A DNA stretch of 63,056 nt, filler included, from Collodictyon triciliatum (lineage: Eukaryota), in NCBI GenBank assembly GCA_043381765.1. It is 12 parts of 12 records of this genome, joined end to end, with 100 filler letters (N's around TTAATTAATTAA, not from the genome) between each part and the next. Parts side by side here need not be neighbours in the genome. Positions count along the whole stretch, not along the records: positions 49,160 to 54,623 come from JBHJMP010005183.1; 11 more parts are not named here. One strand, given 5' to 3'. Both the position numbers and the translations under genes were made by a program. Each line of letters begins with the position of its first letter. Positions within the stretch are counted from its first letter, which is position 1. Shown piece after piece: positions 4,494-54,623 of this stretch. The notes below the pieces were generated by a model. The model saw only the letters and a list, made by a program, of their open reading frames with translations, ran no database searches and was not told the DNA's origin.

Positions 4494-5467
4494 TCTTTAT
4501 CCTCCCTGCTTCTTTTCTTTTCTTTTCTTTTCCTCACTCCTTTTCTCCTGCTTTTTGGCCCACTTCGTATTCGTTTTGGAATGTAAAGATATCAAGTGGA
4601 GAAGAAACGCTGCAAAACAAATGAATTTGGTGAGTTTGTTTGTTTGTTTGTTTGTTTGTTTGTTTGTTTGTTTGTTTGTTTGTTTGTTTGTTTGTTTGTT
4701 TGTTTGTTTGTTTGTTTGTTTGTTTGTTTGTTTGTTTGTTTGTTATATTCATCACACTGAGAGAGACCTATTTTAGAGGAACGAGAAAAAAAAACACAAT
4801 GAATAAGAAAAAGTCCCTTATTGCAAAAACAATCACAGAGAGAAAAAGACACATTTTTCAGAAAATATTATCACACTGGCGTTCTTTCCTTCTTCTCCCA
4901 ACCCACCACACCCTGAAGCGTGCAAGGTAGAAGCGAAATGATAGTCTTCTGCACACGGAGTATATACACGCAACGCGCAATGAGGACAACTCCGCGGCAC
5001 GGGCGACTCCAACGCTCCTAGCTTGTTATCACAGTGATATCTCAAAACGTACAGTATTGCAACCCACAGAACAACAAGACAGATATATTTTATTCTTTAG
5101 TATAAGGATTGTGTGTGAAATGAAGAATCAAGTAAAGTTAAACATCCCCCTCAATGAAGTGGGTTAAAACAATTACGTAAAAAACAGTGAACAAGTTTTA
5201 TGTCATTCGAATGGTTGGGGTATTTTCTTGACGGCTTTTATGGCAATAAATGTTGTTTTAAGAAGTATGAATATCAAATGGCATATTAATAAAAAAGTTC
5301 TTTAGTTCCATTTGATGGAGTAGGAAGATAGACAAAAGGTCATTTTATCATGTTAGCCAGCATGAGTGACGATCAAGTTTCCAAAAATATGGGTAAAAAA
5401 ATAAAAGAAAAGCAGCCGCAAAACGAGGAGCAGATGAAGCGAAAAAAAAAAAAAAAAAAAAAAAAAA

Positions 5468-17479: not shown

Positions 17480-17841
17480 TGGGTATTATAATTTTGCTCC
17501 GCGGCCGTTCTGGTCGTGTTCTGTAACTTATATAGAAAATAGGGATTTTGGGACATTTTCAATCAAAACTATATAAAAATGATTCAATATGGACGAGACA
17601 CTCTGGGTTTTATAATTTTGCTCCGCGGCCGTTCTGGTCGTGTTCTGTAACTTATATAGAAAATAGGAATTTTGGGATATTTTCAATCAAAACTATATAA
17701 AAATGATTCAATATGGACGAGACACTCTGGGTTTTATAATTTTGCTCCGCGGCCGTTCTGGTCGTGTTCTGTATCTTATATAGAAAATAGGAATTTTGGG
17801 ATATTTTCAATAAAAACTCCATAAAAATGATTCAATATGGA
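17480..17841. repeat. 124-bp tandem repeat, ~2.9 near-identical copies
   Basis: TTATAATTTTGCTCCGCGGCCGTTCTGGTCGTGTTCTGTA begins at 17486, 17610 and 17734. Copies differ by only a few substitutions. Confidence 0.95.
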
Positions 17842-19056: not shown

Positions 19057-20637
19057 TTATTCCACACGGAAAGTTTGCTGGTTCGACTGAATCTCTAGGA
19101 CGGCATCGTACAAACTAGCCACCACCATCGTATAGGCAACATCATCCGGACCATCGCCCTCCCATTCTAAACGCAATGTCATCAATCCTGAGCCGGAAGA
19201 CTGAATATCCACTCCAACGATCTCCGACTCGACTGCATCGAGTACCTTTCTTAAATTAAAACCTAAAACAAACTCCGTGCACGGCGAACCTCCAGCCTCT
19301 GCGGCAAACCTAACAGCTTGGGCTAGAGTTGTTGGATCTGTAGCACCGTCCTGCTGTTTAATACTAGCATAATTAGCACCGTACGCTAAACCCCCATTGC
19401 CTGTGTAAGGCGCAGATACTGCCACGCCATTTTCATTTAGTAATGCAGCCGGAGAACCAGCCGCAAAACCACCAGGATCTGCTGCAGCTCCTAACAGATT
19501 CTGTGTCGTTTGTCTATGAGGCGTGTGATACCGAGATCCATGAAACCCAAAAGGTCCAGTGTATTCAGAACGCACAAAGGTCAAGCCCAACGCTTTCTGT
19601 AGCTCTAAGAACGCCTGGCAAGCATTACCCTTAGTCGACATACTCTGAAGGGGATAATAAAATGAGCCAAGCTGAAGCTGAGCACTAATAAGATTTGGCG
19701 GCTTGTGCTTTCTGTCTTTTCCCGCTATTGTGATTTTATTCTGTTCGTCCTGGCGAAAGAAAGCAACAAAGACAGCATTCAAAGATTTCACTGTGTCATT
19801 GATATTGAACGTGTGCATCGTGGTCGGGGTTCCAGGAATCGAGAACAATGATGTGCGCCAAGTCTTATATGGAATCTGAAGCGGTACTCCTCGTGAAATA
19901 CTAGACTGAAGCTGAGCGTGATATTCAGGCGCCATCCGAACCAAGTCATAGCTCAAGAAACACTTTGTTAATTTGTAACTTACGTTAGCTGGAGCAGATC
20001 CCGCTGTTGCTACTGCGTCAGTTCGGTTTACCTGAATACACTCGGGACTTGGTGCAAGCTCGATTTGAAATTGGAACGCTGAGACACTATCAATCAATGA
20101 AGTCGAAATCAGTCCCGAGTAATTCGATATACCTGAAAGTCTAAACGGTATACAGTAATTCTTCGCAGAGGTACTAACAATACCACTAGCCGGAGCAGTC
20201 ACTGACTGAACTCTGTTATAGTAATTGTCAATTCCCATCATCGCCGCACCCACACATTTGTTGTAGTCGTCTGAAATATAGTTCATAAAAATAGAGTCCA
20301 AAAAATTATACCGCTGTATGTCTTCCAAGAGAAACGACGTCCCCTTTCTTATCTGTAGAGTTTGGATAATTGATTCTATTGAATTCAAAAACGTAACATT
20401 ATATACACCACCATTAGCAGCATCTAGAAGTGTAATTTCTGCGTCAAAGTGCAACATAAGCGTATCAAGGTCTATTTCCATACCTGTCTCACTCGGTATG
20501 TTAAACATTATTCTATCCACATTTCTTGGACCAAAATCTGCTCCGTTAAATGGTGATATTCTCGTAGTGTGGCGAGCTAAAACTTTGTCATTGTAGTTTC
20601 TGATTTTCATATACTTGGCTTCGCTAGGGTACTCCAT
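19057..20637 (-). CDS. Major capsid protein, Polinton-like virus type (double jelly-roll), 526 aa, intact
   Basis: The motif order matches PLV MCPs as I recall them: RISPFNGADF-GP...IMFNIP...IDLDTLMLHF; LLEDIQRYNFL; YCIPF; YKLTKCFLSYDLV; KSLNAVFVAF; QLQLGSFYYP; AFLELQKALG; FVLGFNL; LYDAVLEI. The sequence is beta-rich, intronless and free of stops. Confidence 0.85.
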   Translation of the reverse strand: MEYPSEAKYMKIRNYNDKVLARHTTRISPFNGADFGPRNVDRIMFNIPSETGMEIDLDTLMLHFDAEITLLDAANGGVYNVTFLNSIESIIQTLQIRKGTSFLLEDIQRYNFLDSIFMNYISDDYNKCVGAAMMGIDNYYNRVQSVTAPASGIVSTSAKNYCIPFRLSGISNYSGLISTSLIDSVSAFQFQIELAPSPECIQVNRTDAVATAGSAPANVSYKLTKCFLSYDLVRMAPEYHAQLQSSISRGVPLQIPYKTWRTSLFSIPGTPTTMHTFNINDTVKSLNAVFVAFFRQDEQNKITIAGKDRKHKPPNLISAQLQLGSFYYPLQSMSTKGNACQAFLELQKALGLTFVRSEYTGPFGFHGSRYHTPHRQTTQNLLGAAADPGGFAAGSPAALLNENGVAVSAPYTGNGGLAYGANYASIKQQDGATDPTTLAQAVRFAAEAGGSPCTEFVLGFNLRKVLDAVESEIVGVDIQSSGSGLMTLRLEWEGDGPDDVAYTMVVASLYDAVLEIQSNQQTFRVE

Positions 20638-20647
20638 AACATTACCT

Positions 20648-20815: not shown

Positions 20816-21175
20816 TTATCTAAACCTGAGTTCCCTACCGTGAGTTGTTAATGCATAAGCCTGCCCTAAATCATGGATGCCGGAACCCAGTGATTTGGTG
20901 TTTATCTTTTTCAGGTCCATTTCTCCTAAAGTACTCAAACCCCGTCCCAAGTAATTAGCTGCTTTGATGCTAGAGACCAAAGGGTTGGTAAATGTTTGGA
21001 TGGCTGGCTTTACTCCACTTGTTGTAAGTAGATTATCAACCAACCCCATACTCGCATCGTCTAGTCTGTTATATGCGTCGTTAAGTCCCTCCAATCTTTG
21101 AATAGCTCTGTTAGTTGATGTGGTAAGAAATCTACCTACTCCTCGTGCTCCTCGTTGTGCGTAATTAACAATCAT
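20816..21175 (-). CDS. Viral hypothetical protein (119 aa), Gly/Ala/Leu/Arg-rich and likely helical; candidate virion core or membrane-active protein
   Basis: Intronless ORF directly upstream of and co-oriented with the MCP. Function is inferred from composition only. Confidence 0.7.
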   Translation of the reverse strand: MIVNYAQRGARGVGRFLTTSTNRAIQRLEGLNDAYNRLDDASMGLVDNLLTTSGVKPAIQTFTNPLVSSIKAANYLGRGLSTLGEMDLKKINTKSLGSGIHDLGQAYALTTHGRELRFR

Positions 21176-21195
21176 ACATTTCCCAAGATAAAAAT

Positions 21196-22161
21196 ATGAG
21201 CTTGTTTATGGGATCTAAAGAATTCAATCAGAAACTATTTGAAGAAAATATAAAAAACATCAGAGCGTATGAATTAGAAGCTGAGCAAATACCCAAAGTA
21301 ATGAAAGAGTTGTATATCACAATATTTCCTAAAGGAAAATCAAAATCTATCGAAGCAGCACTTATGATGCGAATTGCTAGTTTGCAATACCCCCACAAAA
21401 ATCCTAGTAAGTCGTATAAACTTGCAGCAGATGCTTTTATGGCATCGAGATCATCTAGTGAATTTTTTAGATTGTATGCAGATGGTCCTGCTCCAGGTGT
21501 TCCAGTTACCACAGATAACTTTATAAGAGCATTGGCAAATTTATTAACAACACAAGGAAAAATTTATAAAGAGGATACTGTAGAAAAATACAATCCTCAA
21601 TCACGTTTAAAGTTACAGCGTGATGATGATACTGAAGACGTTGATCTTATTACTCCTGCTCCATCAAAAGCATCTTCTCGTGCAAGTAATATTAGTACTA
21701 GGACAGAAATAGCAGAATATGATAAAGCAAAGTCTTCAGAAGGTTTATATGTAGATCCTACTGAGGGACTTGATGATCCCGAGTCAGATGACGAAGCCCA
21801 ATCAGATGGCGAAACAGGTCAGATCAATGAATTTAAAGAAATAGACCCAGACCAATTAGATGCAGACCAAGAAGCAAAAGAAAAAGGTTATCAATCCGCC
21901 GAGTCGGGCTCACCAGAAGGCTCACCAGACAAATTATTAAATGTATCAGATGTATCAGCAGTCAGTGTTGAGGAACCAAAAGCGGCAGAAGAAGAAGAAG
22001 AAGACGATGAAAATACAGTTACATTAGACCCTGACCAAATCAATCTTCGTTATGGTCTGCTTCGAAATACTATTTCAACCAGCACCAAAGAAATTTTTGT
22101 TTTGGGTTACTTACAAAAACGCAAAAACCTTGTACCAGTTCCTACACATATTCACTTACTT
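21196..22161 (+). CDS. Viral hypothetical protein (at least 322 aa, 3'-truncated) with a long acidic disordered region
   Basis: Intronless ORF divergent from 21175 with only 20 bp between the start codons. It has an Asp/Glu-rich segment and runs into the contig end. Confidence 0.75.
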
Positions 22162-22297
22162 NNNNNNNNNNNNNNNNNNNNNNNNNNNNNNNNNNNNNNN
22201 NNNNNTTAATTAATTAANNNNNNNNNNNNNNNNNNNNNNNNNNNNNNNNNNNNNNNNNNNNTTGATGAGTAATCCTCCCCCCCCCCCCCCCCCCCCC

Positions 22298-24308: not shown

Positions 24309-25543
24309 TTAGTTGAGGATCCATTGTATGGACATCTTGTCAGTTCCTTTTGCTATCTGTTGCACATGAAAAATAGGTTAAACGCCTGAGCGATGTAGGA
24401 AAGCAAGAGAAATGTGACTGAAGTTTGGAAAGAACAAATATGAAAAAAAAATCTTGAAAATGCTTATAACAAAGGCAAGGACACCCATATGCGCACCCAC
24501 CCAGTAAAAACGACACGAAATAGATAGCAACACAGATCCCAAAGTGGTTATCAGTTTGTCTAGATGAAAGCACAAATATATAACCTGGGAAGCCTGGTGC
24601 GGGCGGCCGATTGGACACGAGACGAAGGATGCTACCGGAGGATTTTCTGTGGTGGGCCTACATGCCAGTTGTTGCAGAGTCACTGCAGACTGGAGCATCG
24701 CGTCATCTGTCTCGGGACCAGAGCCAGGCGAGCGACGAGGCAGGTGAGCTGATGAGGCTGAGGCTGAGGCCGAAGGTGATAATGTGTGACATTGCGTGTG
24801 TGCGCTTCGAGATTTGTATGGATTGACAAGCCCAACTGAGTCACATGAGGTGGGGTGGACACGCAAATCCGCCTCTTGTCTGTGTGTGAGAATAGCTGGC
24901 CTAGTAGACAAGCTAGGTGCGAGTGTTTCGTCACAATACCTCCACCTTGCCTGCCTCAGATACTTGCAACGGTATCGACACTGTTGCCCGGTTCGCCCTG
25001 GGATATGTCTTGCTATCTGTCCCAAATATTATCATCTTACCATCGCTGTATGTATGGTCGATTACACGAATAAACCACTGCGGTGTGAATAGGATGGTAG
25101 GTGTGTAGTTTGGGGAAAAGAGTCGGACGATTGGACCAGAGATAGAGCACCAAAACATGTGAAGCGAGTGTTACCTTGCGCCATTGTCCTTGTGGGTAGA
25201 GCATCATTGTATCTCTTAATAAGATATCTTCGGCTGGTGACCATTCTGCATGATTTATTCGTGGGCTCAAAACCCTGTTCCAACGCTGGCAGCATTGGTC
25301 TGCAGTGCGGATACCCTGCATCAAGTCCGAAACCGCGCGCCAGTTCTTTGCTAACCCTTGTTCCTTGATCTTTTTTACACAGCGATTAAAGAAAGAAAGA
25401 ACTTGCGTCAGTCGAAAGCCGTAGTAACCTGTGGGCCATTCTAATAGAGTTATCTTTACCTTTTGCAACTGTGCGTCCTCTTCCACCGTCCAGTGGTGTG
25501 TCCGGTATTCTGCGCTTTTCACCTGGCCAGCTTTCTTGTCCAT
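24309..25543 (-). CDS. Two-repeat Myb/SANT transcription factor, 4 exons
   Basis: Exons ~25543-25460, 25369-25175, 25016-24585 and 24356-24309 (all GT-AG, phase 0) give WTVEEDAQL..NWRAVS..RTADQCCQRWNRVL.P.I...WSPAEDILL..WRK|IARHIPGRTGQQCRYR and a C-terminus KMSIQWILN*. Confidence 0.85.
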
Positions 25544-26212
25544 AAAAATGTGCTCGTTTGTTCTCCTTGCTGCGCAGCCTTTGTTGAACGGATGGGCTGT
25601 GTATGTTGTTAATTGTGTTTTTCTAGTGCAAACCGTTCAATGCTTTTAATCCTTTTTTTTTTTTTTCGTGCACCACCATGGACTCTATAAACCAGCACGA
25701 GCCCAAAAGAAAGAAATAAGCACCTCGTGTTGCGAGCTTATATAGCAGGAAAAAGCCATTCAATGATGCACTAATTTGTGTTTTCACAAAATATATATGA
25801 TGTTTCTTTGCTCACATCTTTTTTTTTTTTTTTTTGAGTTGTTTTAGTCCCTTTTTCTTTGGCTGACAGAATTTCGATGACGCAAAAAAAAAAAAGGACA
25901 AAAAATGGGACAGTATTCCGAATATGGAAACACATTGAGAGAATTCATCATAGCAAGTTTTGGGTGCGTGTTTTTGATGTCTACAAGCCGCTTTTGGACG
26001 AGAATTCCCACGATTCCGGCTGGATGCTTGCCAAGATCGCACGTTTTTGAGTGTGTTAGAAAAAAACCCTGGCTGAGAAACAGCGGACAGTTTGCAAATT
26101 ACTAAAACGTCCACCGGAGCAAACACTGGCGTGTAGAAACCCGGGTTGCGCGCAATTCAAGAAAACCCGTGCAAGGAAGCCGCCTGCAAATCTGTCTGAG
26201 CGGACGGTATTT

Positions 26213-45690: not shown

Positions 45691-47778
45691 AACATAAAGA
45701 ACTCATCCATTCCACCGGAATGAAATTATCTTAGATTCCATTTAGCCTCTCCACGGTAGTGTCTTCCTCTACTCGCGTTTGCTCTCTACCATGCGCTCCA
45801 ATCCCGCCCCTTTGTATCGCATAACCTCTCTGCACTTTGAATCGAATAAAGGAAAAAAATATCTTAGGTTGCATTTTTTTTAAACACGTTCAAGTCCCAT
45901 TTTATCCCCCAAGGTGGCACCATTTTTTAACCCAGCTAGAGGCAACTCGTTCAGTAATTAAATAAATGATTTTATTTATTACTATGACAACTTCCGTAGT
46001 TTTTTAAAAACATTCCTTTTACTCGTTAGTATAATTGTTAGATAAAAGAGAAAATTATATAAGGGAATTTCATGTGCACCCTAGAGTAACTAAGAATTTG
46101 CCGGGTGTCAACCAAGCTGAGAAACTTAAGATATTAGGATACTTTTTTTTTTTCTGAAGGCCTTAATCTCTTATCTCGCTTGTATTGAAAGGAAGAATAT
46201 ACATATATTCATATATTATTCTTTTTTGAAAAGGTTCATACATATCTTCCATTTGCGTCACATGCCAAGGTAAAAAATTTTCATTCAAAGCCAGTTTAAA
46301 AGTCAATGAATTTTTATCAGTTCCCTACTTGCGAATTGCCATTCGATCAAATATGTAAGACACGAATGAAAATGCCCTTTTATGTGTAGCCAACATCAAC
46401 TCATGAAATATTATCCCCTAAAACGCTTTTGGAAAGACAAACTATGGTCATAAATTATTATCGATCAGTTTTGTTAGTTCACTCGAGGCAGTTAAAATGA
46501 TTCATCTACGAAAGAGTGTCAATGGCTAAACAATAGTCTTGGCTGCTCACAATCGGCATGAAAAATGAGTCTTTAAGAACCTAGGACATACAATAGAAAG
46601 TGATTTTTTCCGTTGAAACTTTTCAAAAACGACCCAATGGACTGCGATGATGACTTGAATAAGTTCCTTACTATGTGTTAATTCGAAGGATTCTTTAAAA
46701 TGTGTTACTTCAAAAAGTAAGGAGGAATTAAAATCAACCGATATATTAACGACATAAATAGGTAAAACACTGGTAGTGAATCTATTCCTACTGAAGTAAT
46801 TTGATAATGGAGCAGTTGGCTGTTTTCTTAGTGTTGCAATTTAAATTAGTTTCGAAAAGAGACAGAAGCACGCTTACAGATGGTTTGGTTGTAAATCCTC
46901 TATGTAAATATAAATGTATAGAATAATAATTCAAATGAATATCCTCGAACAGATTTCGGCAGATTCGATTATGAGAGTGAGGTTATTCATACGAAATCGC
47001 TTATTTTACATGAGAAGTTCATAATCATTTGCCAATTTATTTAGACCATGATTGAATGAAGCCCTTTCCAGCTCCTCTGATTCCTGTAAGTGAGACACAT
47101 GAACCAAATGAGTCCATTAAAATATTATACACTTTTTTTTATGAATGAGTAAATGATGATGTCCTAGATCAACATTATCTTAGGAATGCATTTTATAATG
47201 CAGGAGTGGTTTAATGATTTTTCCTTTTAATATTAGCATGAGCGAGAGTATTCGCTTTAGTTTGTCTGGTCTTCTTAAGTCACGGGTTGAGTATTTAAAA
47301 TTCATTTTGAAAACTAATTCACTCCTTTCGAAATGTTTGGTTTCAAAAAGAGAGAGAAAACAGCATCATACGACATATCAATAAACCCCAATCATTCACT
47401 CCTGAATGACTAAATCCCATTTTAATAGATAAGTATGTAAATCCTCTATGAAAGCGGATAGCTAGAAGATTTTTCGGGGTTTAATAAAAAATAATTCATT
47501 TTAAACACATTAGCTAATTTTCCATCGCTTAACAATAAAAGTTAACATGAAGTCATCCTTACAACTTGAAAGACTATATAACGCAATAGGAAACGACCGA
47601 AGTATGGTCGCCCGAACTAGAACTAAAGGAGTATTACAAAAAAACCAGAATTGGGGAATGGTATTTCTGGTGGATACAGAGAGAAACCTATTGCCAATCC
47701 TTTCAGGTGCAACATGTGTTCAAATTGAATCGAAAACCATAAACAAAACATTTAAATTACTACAAAACTAGACCCCTA

Positions 47779-48755
47779 ATGACATCGAGGTGGAGTAGTG
47801 AAGAAGACGATATTCTTTCAAAGAACGTCTCTCTTGGTCTCTCTTGGGAAGAAATCGCTCTGCTTGTGTCTGTGTCTAAATCAAATAGTCCAAAGACCAC
47901 GCGCCAATGCCGCCAAAGATGGTTTCGAGTGCTTGACCCGAGAATAAAAAAGGTTTGTCTGGAATCGTGGGCAATACCACAACTTCTTTGCGCTTCGGGC
48001 GATCCCCTTCTCGGTCAAAGATAAACTCAATGTTAACTATATCAACAACATTTTCTTCTTCATTGGTAGGGTTCTTGGACAAAAGGAGAAGATGATGCGC
48101 TGGAGCTCGCTATTCAAAGGTACGGCGAGCACTCCTGGTCACTGGTAAGTATTTTGATCGCCACAAACGCTTCCTTCTCTCCTCTGAAACAAGTACACAA
48201 ACAAGGAGGTAGTTTATCACTTTTTATTGTTCTAGATCGCAAGAGAGGTTTGTGGAAGAACTGGACTACAGTGCAGGACGAGGTGGGTCCAGAAAAAGGA
48301 AAAGGCTCTCATAGAGGAGGAAAAATTGGCAGGTAAAGGGGAATTGCAGGACACTTTCTACCATTGTAATATTTGCGCCACACTTACGAGTGTTAAATGC
48401 TGTCTATGTTAACTAGCTTTGAGCATTTCTATGATAAAAAATGCCCAAGCTTTTATCATTCATATCACAACATGTGATTTCTTTAGGGGCATCGACAAAG
48501 CGAAAGGATGTTGGTACAGAGTCTCACCATATAGATGAGAAGGAATCTCATTTATCAGAAAAATCCCAAAAACCTTATGGGAGAAATCATTCGCCCTCTG
48601 AGACTATAACAGTTGTAGACCATAGTTCTGAGGGAGGGATGAAACTCACGCCGCCCAACCATGATGAACACTCGTTGAGAGTAAGAAGGAATCACTCAAG
48701 TCCAGCACCTCACAAAGGGATAAGCAAGTCATCTTTGAGTTGGATATTGAATTGA
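47779..48755 (+). CDS. Two-repeat Myb/SANT transcription factor, 4 exons
   Basis: Exons 47779-47952, 48070-48144, 48236-48332 and 48487-48755 join in frame: WSSEEDDIL..WEEIA..KTTRQCRQRWFRVLDPRIKK|GSWTKGEDDAL..YGEHSWSL|IAREVCGRTGLQCRTRW. The protein ends KSSLSWILN*. Confidence 0.88.
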
Positions 48756-49797: not shown

Positions 49798-50802
49798 TCA
49801 ATTCATGATGAAAGAAAGACTTGCTTTGGAGGTTACATTAGATCTTACCGAGGATGCATCAGGGATACTTTTCATCGCTGTTTTTTTTTCTGGGGGGCCA
49901 ACCACACTATGGCCCGACACCGAAGCACCAGCATTACTACAGTCCGCATCCTTCTTGGGAGGAGAAGGCAGCGGCGTCAATAATTCAGTTGCTCTCATTG
50001 TAGTATCGAAGAAACCTCCTGTTAGACCTATACTAGCCGATGCAAGGTCCTCGTTCTGAGAGTCCAAGTGGGTGCTCAGAGCCATGTGCGCCTCTCTGGC
50101 ATCCAAGTAATTATCGTATTGGAGCCTTTCAGCTCTAGTGCCAGGGTGAATGGTATATTCTTGATCGTCACTCTCTTCTTCACAGCTGCTGTGGTGCTTG
50201 CTCTTGGGCGTAGGCTCCTTGGATTCATCGCAGTAAGCTTCTTTGCCCCGATATGTAACATCTACAAAAACTTCCGTTTCTGTTTCAGTGTCGCGCATTT
50301 CTCTTTGCTGCTCTGCATCTATCTGGCTCTCCTCTTGTCCATGAAGTGACCTACTTTGTTTTTGGAACCACGGGCACTTTCCTTGTGAGCGCCAAAGAAG
50401 CCAACGGGTTCGACATTGTATATCTGTGCGTGTCTCAATTCTGCGAGCAATAGCCGCCCAGGAACTTATACCAAGCTCCAATATTCCTTTGCGCAAGAGG
50501 TTATCTTCGTGAGGACTCCACGTTCCTTTGCGAATATTTGGGTGCAATACGCGGGTGTAACGTTGGGCGCATTGTTTGCTAGTTCTTTGCATTGAGGCGT
50601 CATATATGTATCTTGATTCGTTGTAAGCTTTCAGATGCTTTGATATAACCCTCCAACGGAGTCCCCTCTGTGCCAAAGTGGTTAGGATGGCGTCCTCTGC
50701 CTCAGTCCAGGGTATTTGCTCTAGCTTTTTCTTTGAGGGTGTATTTTTGCCGTTTAGGATATCGTTTCCTGTAAGGATAGTGAAATCCCCGACGGCTGCC
50801 AT
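49798..50802 (-). CDS. Two-repeat Myb/SANT transcription factor, intronless
   Basis: WTEAEDAIL..WRVISKHL..RTSKQCAQRYTRVLHPNIRKGTWSPHEDNLL..SWAAIARRIETRTDIQCRTRW. The protein ends KASLSFIMN*. Confidence 0.9.
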   Translation of the reverse strand: MAAVGDFTILTGNDILNGKNTPSKKKLEQIPWTEAEDAILTTLAQRGLRWRVISKHLKAYNESRYIYDASMQRTSKQCAQRYTRVLHPNIRKGTWSPHEDNLLRKGILELGISSWAAIARRIETRTDIQCRTRWLLWRSQGKCPWFQKQSRSLHGQEESQIDAEQQREMRDTETETEVFVDVTYRGKEAYCDESKEPTPKSKHHSSCEEESDDQEYTIHPGTRAERLQYDNYLDAREAHMALSTHLDSQNEDLASASIGLTGGFFDTTMRATELLTPLPSPPKKDADCSNAGASVSGHSVVGPPEKKTAMKSIPDASSVRSNVTSKASLSFIMN

Positions 50803-51654
50803 CACCTCGATCTCTTTAATAAAAAATAAAATAAAATAAAAAAAAAGCGAATTAAAATCCTTGGGAACAAAAAATGGAAAGGTTGTCGTGAGAGCAAGTA
50901 ATCATATCACATTTTCAGTATCTCGGTTATCATTAGTTGGTGGAGGGTATAATATTCAAGTACCGCGAACCCCAAGCTTCGATGCTTTGCTGGTTTAAAG
51001 CAAGGATTGACGAGATATTGATCAGCGATAAACAACGAGGGGGAAATACCAAATGCTCGCACACGAGAATAAAAAAAAGGAAAGGAAAATATGCATTCAT
51101 AAATAAATAAATAAATAAATAAATAATTAATATCTTCAGGTGCCTATAGTAGTATTAGAAAAGGTCTTTTAAAGAATTTAGTCAACTCCTGAGACGATTG
51201 CACAAACAATTGGTGAAGTTGCCTCCCAACATAACGCAACAATATGATAGTGTTGCTGGGAGAATGGTAGGAATCTGCGTCATGTGTTGACAGGAGATAT
51301 TATGAAACAACTACCTAAATTATAGTGTGAAGAAAAATGGCTAGGCCAATAGCGTTTTCTAAACAAGACACATCCCCTTTCGTCACTCCCTCGGCTTCCT
51401 AATGCAATAAAATCCCTGTATGGAATCCGTAGATGCATAATTTCCACAAATGGATAATTTCCTGCTCTATGCTCGGCTTATTATACATCTTTCTGCTGAG
51501 GAATATACCACCTTTCGATTGGTAAACCCAGTGCGCTAGTATCCAAGGTCTCATCACTTTTTTCACAAAGATAGTCCAGTGGTGTGGCTGCCAGGTAGAC
51601 CCGACAACCTGTTTTTTTAGAGGAAGGTGTATGCATATTTTGAAGGGTTAAAAG

Positions 51655-53572
51655 AACTTTCTTGAGTATATTTTTAGCGCTGTTAAAGTCTCTTGTCAAG
51701 AATACACTTTGTTTGCTCTCTGACCGATTGCATTCTTTACATATGAGACATATGCACAACTTTTTTGAATTTCCTTTCGGCTTCATATATTCCAGTTCTT
51801 TTTCACAGTTGCAACACACCTTGGAGGTTCTAAATTCATCTATACTAACTGCTTCAAAACGATTGGATAGTATTTTTCGTAATCCTCTTCCGATTGTTGG
51901 CTTATAATGTTTCATCTTACATTTTCTGCTCCAGTCTCCATACGCCAGTACAACATCCTTGCCAAATGTCTTTTCGATATGGACAATAAACAATAGTTCA
52001 CTTCTTTTTGTATTAACATACTGTCTCCATATCATCTTTCGAAAAGTTCGTGTTCATAAAATCTGGAAAGTTCTATCTGGTATCTTGATTTCATAGGTAC
52101 ATATTTTCGAAGTTTTTCATAATCGACCGTGCATGAATAATGTTTGGTCAGTTCTGTCTTTAATTCGATTAAGGATACTCTTGATGTCTCAAACTTCTGA
52201 TTCTCTTCAAAAGTCGTGGCACCAAAATAAACAGCACTTTGTAAATATGTTGCCATGCTTACCCTGAAGCATGTTTTTTTTCTTGCGCAGGAGTATTTTG
52301 TGATTTTTAAAGAGATTTGGTATCAAGTCTTGTTTGGTGTGCTGTGTAACGTAAACTTGCCTGTCTCATCCACCATGTAAACCAAATTAAACTTGCCTGT
52401 GTCCACTCCAACTATTTTTTTTATTTTTGTCTCTAATAAATAGCTGCTCTTCTGAATGTTCATCTATATAAACATATTCTTAGGTTTTTTTATTACATTG
52501 GAATTTTGAATTTGAAATACCTTTCTTTTCAAACAATAATGACAGCGCCAAGCTGTCTGTTTGTATCATGTATTTAAAATTGTAGTCCCTTTGATGAAAG
52601 ACCCTCTTCTTCATTTCAAAGAAATCATCCAATAGGGTCTCTTTGCATCTTGATATATTCTTCATTAATAATGATTTTCCAGTTGATACTAATAGACATG
52701 TCAAACATGCAGTATCTTGAGTAATGTGACATGGTATAATGGTAGTTCTCATAGAGATTGATTGAAACAGTTTGGCTCCATTGTCCTCAAAAATGCGATT
52801 AATGTAAATCAGACATGAAATGAACTTATTTGAATTGACTTTGGCGTCATATTTGATATCATTTACAATATCGCTGGGAATGATATGATGCATATGCGTT
52901 TTAGCCCATTCTTTGTATTGTTCTGGTATTTCGAGATTCTTGAAGATGATTTTTTTAACTTTCGTAACTCTGCCTTTTTAATTGCTTCCGTAATATTCCC
53001 ATATTTAGGAACTGTTTGATTTATAAAGTGCAGTAGCCTCTTTACAAAATGTTCCTTAATATTACTATGATAAGTTGTTAGCACTTGTTTCGCCAAGTAA
53101 GGTAATACAGGACAGTACAACCAACAGAAAGCGTTCTTCTTGGGACAAAAGGAATCGAAAATCATTGAGATAAAATGTCATCAAGTCATCTCTCATTTCT
53201 GGATGTTTTAAACTTGCGGGTCTATCTTGTGTAACTATTCCGACTGCCTTTAAAGCGCACAAAAAAAACCATTTCATCGATTGCTAGGAGTTGTTGTGAT
53301 TTCAATATGTAACATCTTGCGAACAGATAAGTGTCGGTAACCAAATTATGACACAATAAGACTGTATCGGGGGGGGGGGGGGGGGGNNNNNNNNNNGAGT
53401 GGAGAGGGGGGGGGGGGTGTGTGGGGGGGGGTGGGGGGGGGGGGGGGGGGGGTTTGATTTTTTAATAGTCATCCGCATTCTTTACAATCGACTAAAGAGA
53501 TGTTTTCACATTTCGATAGTCTGGTTTTACAGACCTTAAATTCTCAAACCCAAGATGTTTTCTTTTCTTCAT
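51655..53572 (-). pseudogene. Fanzor1 (eukaryotic TnpB-like RNA-guided nuclease), disrupted by frameshifts, stops and a poly-G/N tract
   Basis: Ordered motifs: N-terminal MKKRK..YRNVKTSL*SIVKN; LVTDTYLFARCYIL; LPYLAKQV..NIKEHFVKRL; YMIQTD; RuvC-I IVGVDTGK (Asp 52401-52403); LRYTAHQ; LAYGDWS; RuvC-II IDEFRTSKVCCNC (Glu 51835-51837); CKEC; RuvC-III TRDFNSAKNIL (Asp 51688-51690). Confidence 0.9.
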
Positions 53573-54529
53573 AAGAAAGTCTTTGTTTAACTTTTTTCCT
53601 TTAGAAAACCACCGAGTTTTCAATTTTAATAAAACTTTAGTCAATCAGTCAATTGGTCAATTTAATATAAAAAATAATCAACTGCATAAAATTAAGCATT
53701 TATCGAGACTTTCAAGATGTGCGCATTGTGGCCAACAAACACACAAAGTTTTTTTATAAATGATTTGAGACAAAACGCTGAGAGCCGATTCGGTGAGTTC
53801 GAAAGGACGGCCGTATGGCCGTTGCGACTGAAAGTTAACATATCAACCCAAACAGCATGATTACCGCTGCAAGTGTCGATAGTATGCTTTTTTGAAATGC
53901 ATGTTTGGTGGCAGGTTTACAGGTGGGCTCTGTCTGGGCCAAGGCAAGGGCTTGTTTGTAATCTTTGGATTTTAATGATAATGTCGCACAAATGAAAAAT
54001 AAAACATAAATTGATTACAGAAATAGTATGATATTATTATGTATTTATAACCTTATTATATATACTAATTATACTATTATATTATTCAGGTTGTTTATGA
54101 TTCAACAAAGCACCTGCTTTCATCAATCCATATTTAATTTGATGGTTGTCTGTGCAACAAGCTGCTATGTAGGGATACACTTTCGTTGTATAAAAAGTGT
54201 TGTGCCTGAAAGGGATAAAACCGAGTTCGGCACAACCTTTGTAATGAAGTCTATCCATTTACAGACTGAATGTGACCAGAAGAGTAAAGAGGGAAAAGAA
54301 AAGAAAAGAAAAAAAAGAAAAAAAAGAAAAAAAGAAAAAAAGAAAAAAAAGAAAAAAAGAAAAAAAGAAAAAAAGAAAAAAAGAAAAAAAGAAAAGAAAA
54401 GACAAGAAAAAAGAAAAAAAGAAAAAATAATCAGAGCAACTAATACTGAGCACTGTAATCATAATTATCTTGCTACCCGTGGGTTGATGGCTTGAGCTCG
54501 ATCTGTCTTTTTTTGTTCCCCTTTTTATA

Positions 54530-54623
<94 letters not shown>

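Follow-up and report, generated by a model that had tools for sequence, protein, structure and literature searches.

A decayed Fanzor1-derived gene family in Collodictyon triciliatum, probably amplified as the passenger of a Helitron1-like element

The locus and its gene

The window analysed here, a stretch of 63,056 nucleotides made up of parts of 12 records of the Collodictyon triciliatum assembly GCA_043381765.1, holds on its minus strand, within the part taken from JBHJMP010005183.1, a Fanzor1-derived gene that runs from an ATG (opening MKKRK) at 53572-53570 past the RuvC-III residue at 51690. The extent originally predicted, 51655-53572, falls short both of the family frame, which reads on to a TGA at 51565-51563, and of the mobile unit, whose right boundary lies at about 51496 and which extends to 54623 or further. 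This copy is severed by a contig end at 54624, and the 5′ module (approximately 550-600 bp in other copies) lies outside the window. Contig joints in the stretch consist of a 12-base stop linker flanked on either side by 44 N, and simple repeats are strongly expanded across the whole window. The features of the unit are as follows:

51496-51523, minus strand: Helitron-type right terminus, with a hairpin at 51523-51507 and then about 11 nt to the end
51496-51610, minus strand: structured right end, candidate omegaRNA scaffold, overlapping the end of the ORF
51563-53572, minus strand: decayed Fanzor1-derived coding sequence, from alignment to the relative P0001, with the family stop (TGA 51565-51563) placed by eye
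51688-51690, minus strand: RuvC-III Asp (TRDFN), from alignment to P0001
51730-51816, minus strand: C4 zinc finger (CCNC ... CKEC), from alignment; the PF07282 match is weak (E 0.007) and below the cut-off
51835-51837, minus strand: RuvC-II Glu placed as in Fanzors, with six residues to the zinc finger, from alignment and the definition in PMC10711439
52401-52403, minus strand: RuvC-I Asp, D-T-G here (D-A-G in the family, D-P-G in homologues), from alignment to P0001
53370-53453, no strand: poly-G run interrupted by 10 N, peculiar to the window copy; 53454 joins 53369 in other copies
53573-54293, minus strand: non-coding leader of about 720 bp, family-wide and absent from Fanzor-less relatives
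54294-54427, minus strand: expanded pyrimidine tract, which precedes the Helitron terminator in Fanzor-less relatives
54428-54523, minus strand: Helitron-derived segment, common to a RepHel relic (G000:C1887) and Fanzor-less sister elements
54525-54623, no strand: (TAA)n microsatellite internal to the element, behind which the contig ends

The coding path can, as originally claimed, be traced across frameshifts and stops; from the ATG at 53572 it passes through all three minus-strand frames. Frameshift-aware alignment to P0001, an intact natural relative of 648 aa found by protein search on a 2.6-kb ENA contig, gives 60% identity over residues 1-620, interrupted by three stops (TAG at 53494-92, TAA at 53464-62 and TAA at 52482-80), eight frameshifts (at approximately 53266, 53109, 52969, 52440, 52358, 52309, 52260 and 52048) and the 84-bp poly-G/N insert; a ninth frameshift falls in the tail at about 51618, and the copy is dead, as had been supposed. 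Contigs from public sequencing runs show loose ends at 53369, the edge of the poly-G run, which is either a one-base expansion or an assembly artefact. The sole long open piece is 51484-52053, and the unbroken C-terminal frame matches PpFz1 (E 5.7e-12), SpuFz1 (3e-6) and GtFz1 (0.077); given the first two values, the likeness to Fanzor1 is not due to chance. The predicted catalytic D/E/D residues (Asp 52403, Glu 51837 and Asp 51690) and the four zinc cysteines (51816, 51807, 51741 and 51732) were all located.

The wider identification was carried by P0001, which aligns over its full length with SpuFz1, PpFz1 and GtFz1 (PDB 8gkh, 9cf0 and 9cer; E 2e-28 to 4e-23). A profile of 76 aligned relatives, picked as near-full-length top matches from 155 fetched proteins, recognises the three Fanzor1 structures at E 2e-106 to 3e-81 as against 0.09 for ISDra2 TnpB, and the read-through of the window copy scores 577 bits against it, so that the profile match on which the original prediction depended was indeed found. 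The AlphaFold model of P0001 (pLDDT 88) superposes on the solved Fanzor1s with TM 0.64-0.73 (SpuFz1 0.73) and on mimivirus Fanzor2 with TM 0.22. The tree placement that had been proposed, run on Fanzor1-type rows with Fanzor2 and TnpB left out, returned the window copy and two other copies as sister to P0001 (support 1.0), with giant-virus proteins next (0.957). The published Fanzor1 pattern, D-X(125-275)-[TS][TS]-XX-C4 zinc finger-X(5-50)-RD (PMC3627910), fits the window copy across its frameshifts as D364, TS558-559, C562/565/587/590 and RD603-604 in P0001 numbering. The RuvC-II Glu stands six residues ahead of the zinc finger (Ealt, in EFRTSKVC) and is present in 41 of 46 copies. The full-length architecture is that of Fanzor1 rather than of Fanzor2 or TnpB, in agreement with the predicted descent.

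The RuvC-I motif departs from this picture. Fanzors are described as having “near exclusively DPG” at this position (PMC10711439), the proline is found in 75 of 75 aligned homologues, and P0001 keeps DPG; the family reads DAG in 43 of 47 copies and the window copy DTG. Since the DPG fingerprint fails, the gene is, as judged from its sequence, filed as Fanzor1-derived with a non-canonical RuvC-I motif and not as a canonical Fanzor1.

Further genes were noted in the window. An unbroken 529-aa frame at 19057-20646 on the minus strand has no Pfam match; its ESM Atlas features match Preplasmiviricota capsid clusters at 0.97-0.98, with a recognition value below threshold, and it probably encodes the major capsid protein of a Polinton-like element or a virophage. 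Beside it lie a 124-bp tandem repeat (17480-17841) and an ORF of unknown nature (21169-22209). An intact-looking Myb-domain gene (PF00249, E 1.7e-19) occupies 49798-50901 on the minus strand, approximately 700 bp beyond the right end of the element, and further Myb-like frames occur near 47700-48400 and at 24378-25636.

Copy number, decay and the majority sequence

The family numbers at least 150 copies in the C. triciliatum genome. A search with the C-terminal piece gave at least 152 matches, 150 of 718 candidates being scored, and DNA searches listed 360 candidates when the last 551 bp served as query and 178 when the 5′ module did. All 47 copies that span the gene are broken, each with its own 4-17 frameshifts and 1-12 stops, and the longest stop-free frames per copy measure 83-253 aa (46 copies); when P0001 was used to seek an intact copy in the same genome, none was met among the best 68 of 1130 candidates. 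The idea of intact relatives within this genome thus finds no support in the copies covered. D/E/D are all kept in 33 of the 47 copies, and together with the four cysteines in 16, so that their retention in the window copy is unremarkable; as a single dead copy, the window Fanzor is ordinary.

The proposal that the lesions are assembly errors, the gene or the family being in truth intact, may draw on the poly-G run, whose internal gap resembles a sequencing artefact, and on the unlinked common variants, discussed below, that repeats of this assembly carry. It is nevertheless very hard to credit: frames of 323-529 aa are uninterrupted in other genes of the window, the lesions differ from copy to copy, and contigs from four public runs (one of which may be the source of the assembly) are mostly 80-95% alike to the window copy.

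Copies diverge by 5.4-9.1% from the majority sequence, to which P0001 is 69% identical, and by pairs are 84-90% identical, forming a star tree with 96% of its branch length terminal. The pN/pS ratio is 0.85 over all copies and 0.93 for singletons; by variant sharing it is 0.8 for variants in 2-3 copies, 0.6 for those in 4-7 and 1.22 for those in eight or more, the last class showing no synonymous excess and containing seven stops. The star tree and the near-neutral ratios point to one old burst followed by near-neutral decay, and the founders may have been under some selection, to judge from ratios somewhat below 1 for variants in 2-7 copies.

The 47 copies also have two common alleles in 91 of 2064 columns (4.4%), unlinked beyond about 5 bp, of which CpG decay accounts for only nine. 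Fanzor-driven gene conversion was considered as their source and rejected, because an unrelated repeat (L255-L284, 30 copies) shows the same pattern in 37 of 789 columns (4.7%). Such variants occur genome-wide and may stem from conversion in fine patches, from mutation at particular sites or from the assembly itself.

Across residues 1-620 the majority frame is free of stops. Of 56 conserved positions it retains 52, a number of departures such as intact homologues also show (0-11); an open frame with so many positions kept suggests a founder close to functional. Two of its four departures are residues found in no aligned homologue, and the departures include the P-to-A change in DPG (43 of 47 copies) and E391 to D (43 of 47 copies, with D in none of 75 homologues). 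The earlier hope that a consensus could yield an active nuclease is accordingly doubtful: the open frame and the 52 positions speak for it and the DPG and E391 changes and the 91 biallelic columns against it, which stands as a warning that an enzyme built from the family consensus may turn out inactive. The candidate practical lead is the intact relative P0001, combined with the RNA scaffold and the guess at an A/T-rich TAM that the family provides.

Ends, carrier and capture of the gene

Full copies are approximately 3.5 kb long (4.1 kb in a longer form). Their apparent 5′ start is TTT(C/G)CA in 22 of 35 loci, followed by (TTTG)n; this junction was drawn without an empty site, none being found among the loci examined, and no 5′ TC was seen there. 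Terminal inverted repeats (TIRs) are absent from eight of eight full copies, and Helitron2-type asymmetric repeats from the very 5′ end of eight copies, with one weak subterminal match (score 23, L103). The base at -1 is A in 73% of 26 copies, a figure biased by a search pattern that excluded T. Target duplications show no excess over cross-pairs in 23 full copies, and among 11 fixed-register pairs the test gave P = 0.09, one pair matching at 10 of 11 positions. Copies that seem truncated on the 5′ side often owe this to a contig end, a gap, a nested repeat or an internal deletion, and bear no duplications.

The right end is sharper. Homology between copies ends abruptly at about 51496 with CTAG|T, decayed to CTCAG|C in the window copy, and an 18-nt palindrome stands approximately 9 nt ahead of CTAG. 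Among 77 distinct right ends CTAG is exact in 48, has one mismatch in 23 and is unclear in six, the window's among them, which agrees with the 3′ hairpin plus CTRR that marks Helitron1 (HLE1). The base after the end is T in 64 of 71 and begins TA in 40 of 71, above background; by a count of 80 flanks, T occupies +1 in 90%, and the second base is mostly A, not the T that the T|T target of a Helitron2 (HLE2) would give. For about 12 nt the 3′ flank is A/T-rich, with ATAAA or AATAA in 42 of 80 flanks as against 5 and 7 of 80 controls. The loop of the terminal hairpin (window 51513-51516) occurs in both orientations (GAAA 55, TTTC 21, unclear 1, n = 77), and the two forms are dispersed across the star tree, a pattern that repeated template switching would produce.

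Fanzor1 genes are also carried by Tc1/mariner-type elements in giant viruses, and such an element should be given consideration here. The closest viral relatives of P0001 (44-47%), which form the sister clade supported at 0.957, are bounded by TIRs of 32 bp that end GGTG|TA, and between these repeats five of six loci examined hold a transposase-like ORF. The Collodictyon family has no TIR, its ends show no DNA likeness to the viral elements, and TA follows the end in only 40 of 71 cases as against T alone in 64; a mariner vehicle for this family is therefore largely refuted and has scarcely any probability left, and it is plausible that a mariner element was an earlier vehicle of the gene.

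RepHel genes are present in the genome; the one on G000:C6377 bears STPR, Helitron_like_N and PIF1 domains, and STPR is reported to be almost confined to HLE1 (PMC11417382). The longer form, seen at five loci, contains a stretch of about 600 bp with homology to this RepHel gene, covering its promoter and approximately its first 110 codons, with scores of 189-352 against a maximum of 48 in shuffles of one locus. In the window copy, 54510-54429 scores 77 against the RepHel-helicase relic C1887 and 70 against a Fanzor-less sister element (shuffled maxima 35 and 34), with no match to the C6377 RepHel (score 24). None of nine RepHel/PIF1 loci, nor C1887, combines RepHel and Fanzor in one element. 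The window holds a second member of the Helitron family at 4775-5453 on the plus strand, with a 5′ module and a remnant of the RepHel start, ending at a contig end.

Fanzor-less relatives allow the point of capture to be placed. The left part of the Fanzor family, from the 5′ module with its (TTTG)n to the Helitron-derived segment and pyrimidine tract, recurs in Fanzor-less Helitrons and RepHel relics of this genome. In seven of eight independent cases (L155-L163 counted once, the unreadable L109 and L297 and the Fanzor-type L166 left out), a GAAGCA-type hairpin and a CTAG-like|T end come directly after this segment and tract. In the Fanzor family the 720-bp leader begins where these relatives have their terminator, and a second hairpin with CTAG|T comes 2.8 kb later; the replacement of the terminator by the leader marks a capture junction at about 54290. 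The last 15 nt look alike, by eye, in Fanzor-type and Fanzor-less ends, so that the cassette may equally well have been inserted into the old terminator as been reached by read-through to a new one. The final hairpin differs in sequence from that of the RepHel-encoding elements, with which the left and subterminal parts are common (C6377 and C1887). The Fanzor-less Helitron of L155-L163 (for example G000:C5980 and C7140) sits inside a larger repeated unit of more than 3 kb, approximately 91% identical between contigs and containing host-like gene fragments.

An unclassified TIR-less Fanzor element moving by its own mechanism, with variable or A/T-rich duplications as in MCi-2, MCi-5 and CRe-1, would make the Helitron-like letters incidental or due to a nested Helitron. 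Families of that sort are described (PMC3627910), and the missing 5′ TC, the borderline duplication test and its one near-perfect 11-bp pair would suit it. The Helitron left part and the Fanzor cassette, however, travel together in many copies with unrelated flanks, and the duplication excess is absent in the 23 full copies, which leaves this reading improbable.

The right end may further harbour the guide RNA. A stem at 51610-51586, a second stem, a possible loop pseudoknot and the terminal hairpin can be drawn; a hand-drawn 38-pair model has 89.6% of cells paired, and four of six hand-picked ends fold better than shuffles (z -3.2 to -4.4), the window copy no better (z -0.95). RNAalifold retained only four pairs on the right ends, covariation did not exceed that of shuffles, and Rfam gave no match. 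An omegaRNA at the right end is thus a candidate placed by position and by analogy with known Fanzors. The C-terminal tail of P0001 (KKQAVG...) resembles the family frame over the first RNA stem, a likeness in sequence hinting at the same RNA scaffold.

Taken together, a Helitron1-like non-autonomous element probably captured a Fanzor1 gene and was then amplified passively, with the gene as passenger. The rolling-circle element would have taken up the gene together with its leader and guide-RNA end; RepHel supplied in trans would have read through the old terminator, or the element would have lost it, and the last stem of the omegaRNA region would have become the new rolling-circle terminator. 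A single old burst would then have spread the unit to some hundreds of A/T-rich sites. The Fanzor gene would have been cargo, with a founder presumably already DAG for DPG and post-insertion selection keeping no copy. Any working founder RNP would, by analogy with other Fanzors, have relied on RNA transcribed across the right end, the 3′ flank serving as guide.

With the same Helitron carrier, the DAG Fanzor could instead have been active and useful during the burst and have died only afterwards, its cut at emptied donor sites (a left-flank A/T-rich motif with the 3′ flank as guide) restoring or spreading the element. Such a model has been proposed for Helitrons (PMC10432273, PMC13565253), and the open majority frame (1-620), with 52 of 56 positions kept and departures within the range of intact homologues, and the structured end retained in four of six hand-picked cases would accord with it. 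Against it stand the invariant proline of the 75 homologues, the lack of selection on the copies (ratio 1.22 and seven stops among variants in eight or more) and the spread of internally deleted and Fanzor-less forms; we regard it as unlikely. The accompanying suggestion, that the last omegaRNA stem doubles as terminator, a single 30-nt end being both the stop signal in DNA and the scaffold in RNA, and gives each copy a fresh 3′-flank guide while an active DAG enzyme drove the burst, is correspondingly doubtful, and there is little more than a slight chance that a canonical Helitron1 took a giant-virus-type Fanzor1 whose A/T-rich TAM was the Helitron target, donor sites being re-filled. Why a homing-type nuclease should reside in a copy-and-paste Helitron is an open question in the literature (PMC13565253, PMC10432273). 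Passive capture and amplification, the preferred reading, has in its favour that the family retains the capture junction, a Fanzor-less parent and many insertions, which together point to hitch-hiking.

Comparison with known systems

SpuFz1, PpFz1 and GtFz1 share with this family full-length homology (through P0001), the split D/E/D with shifted Glu, the C4 finger and a structured 3′ end; the window copy differs in being a pseudogene and, with its family, in having DAG or DTG instead of DPG. Spu-1 has 30-33-bp TIRs and a TA duplication, and the Collodictyon family neither.

Among protein relatives of known context, the giant-virus mariner-borne Fanzor1s (PGv-1 type; IMG/VR L171-L174) come nearest, at 44-47% to P0001; they are unlike the Collodictyon family in their TIRs, TA flanks, transposase-like ORF and different 3′ RNA sequence. 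A search of metagenome and viral contigs did not recover the DNA context of P0001 itself. In Cyanidioschyzon merolae, CMe-1A (PMC3627910) is likewise an old 3-kb TIR-less Fanzor1 family, with approximately 150 copies and a 5′ part identical to another short element, but it keeps some intact ORFs on an unclassified carrier, whereas none of the full-length Collodictyon copies is intact and their carrier can be traced back to RepHel.

The ends resemble those of Helraiser (PMC4778049) and HLE1 (PMC11417382), which have a hairpin about 10 nt before CTAG, T next, no TIR, an A/T-rich 3′ flank, new 3′ ends arising by read-through and termini common to RepHel elements; in Helraiser the palindrome lies 11 nt from the CTAG end, the target is AT and the A/T preference is strongest in the 3′ flank (PMC4778049). 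The Collodictyon element differs in its 5′ TT in place of TC, a combination of 5′ TT with 3′ CTAG that is reported for proto-Helentron (an HLE2), and in a cargo comprising a whole Fanzor gene with its RNA end.

Of the same kind are CRe-1/2/3 of Chlamydomonas (PMC3627910; CrFNuc, PMC10530073), non-autonomous Helitrons with a Fanzor1, many copies, intact 3′ ends and structured RNA at the 3′ end. They are Helitron2 elements with asymmetric inverted repeats, insertion after TTTT, variable duplications of 7-19 bp and introns, as opposed to the CTAG|T end, STPR-type RepHel relatives, lack of introns and absence of general duplication in the Collodictyon family. Fanzor1 in Helitron2 is thus already published (PMC3627910, PMC10530073), as is Fanzor1 in Helitrons generally (PMC10711439, PMC13565253, PMC10432273, PMC10288648). 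Searches of paper listings and abstract openings showed no CTAG-ending Helitron1 with Fanzor1 and no DAG family, and Table S1 of PMC10530073 or Repbase may already list Helitron1-borne Fanzors. Reported copy numbers are 122 (PMC10530073) and approximately 150 for CMe-1A and CRe-1, and the Collodictyon family is at the high end of these reports. Fanzor1 genes usually switch from one vehicle to another (PMC3627910), and it is as an illustration of Fanzor genes changing vehicles, rather than as a ready new editing enzyme, that the family takes its place among these systems.
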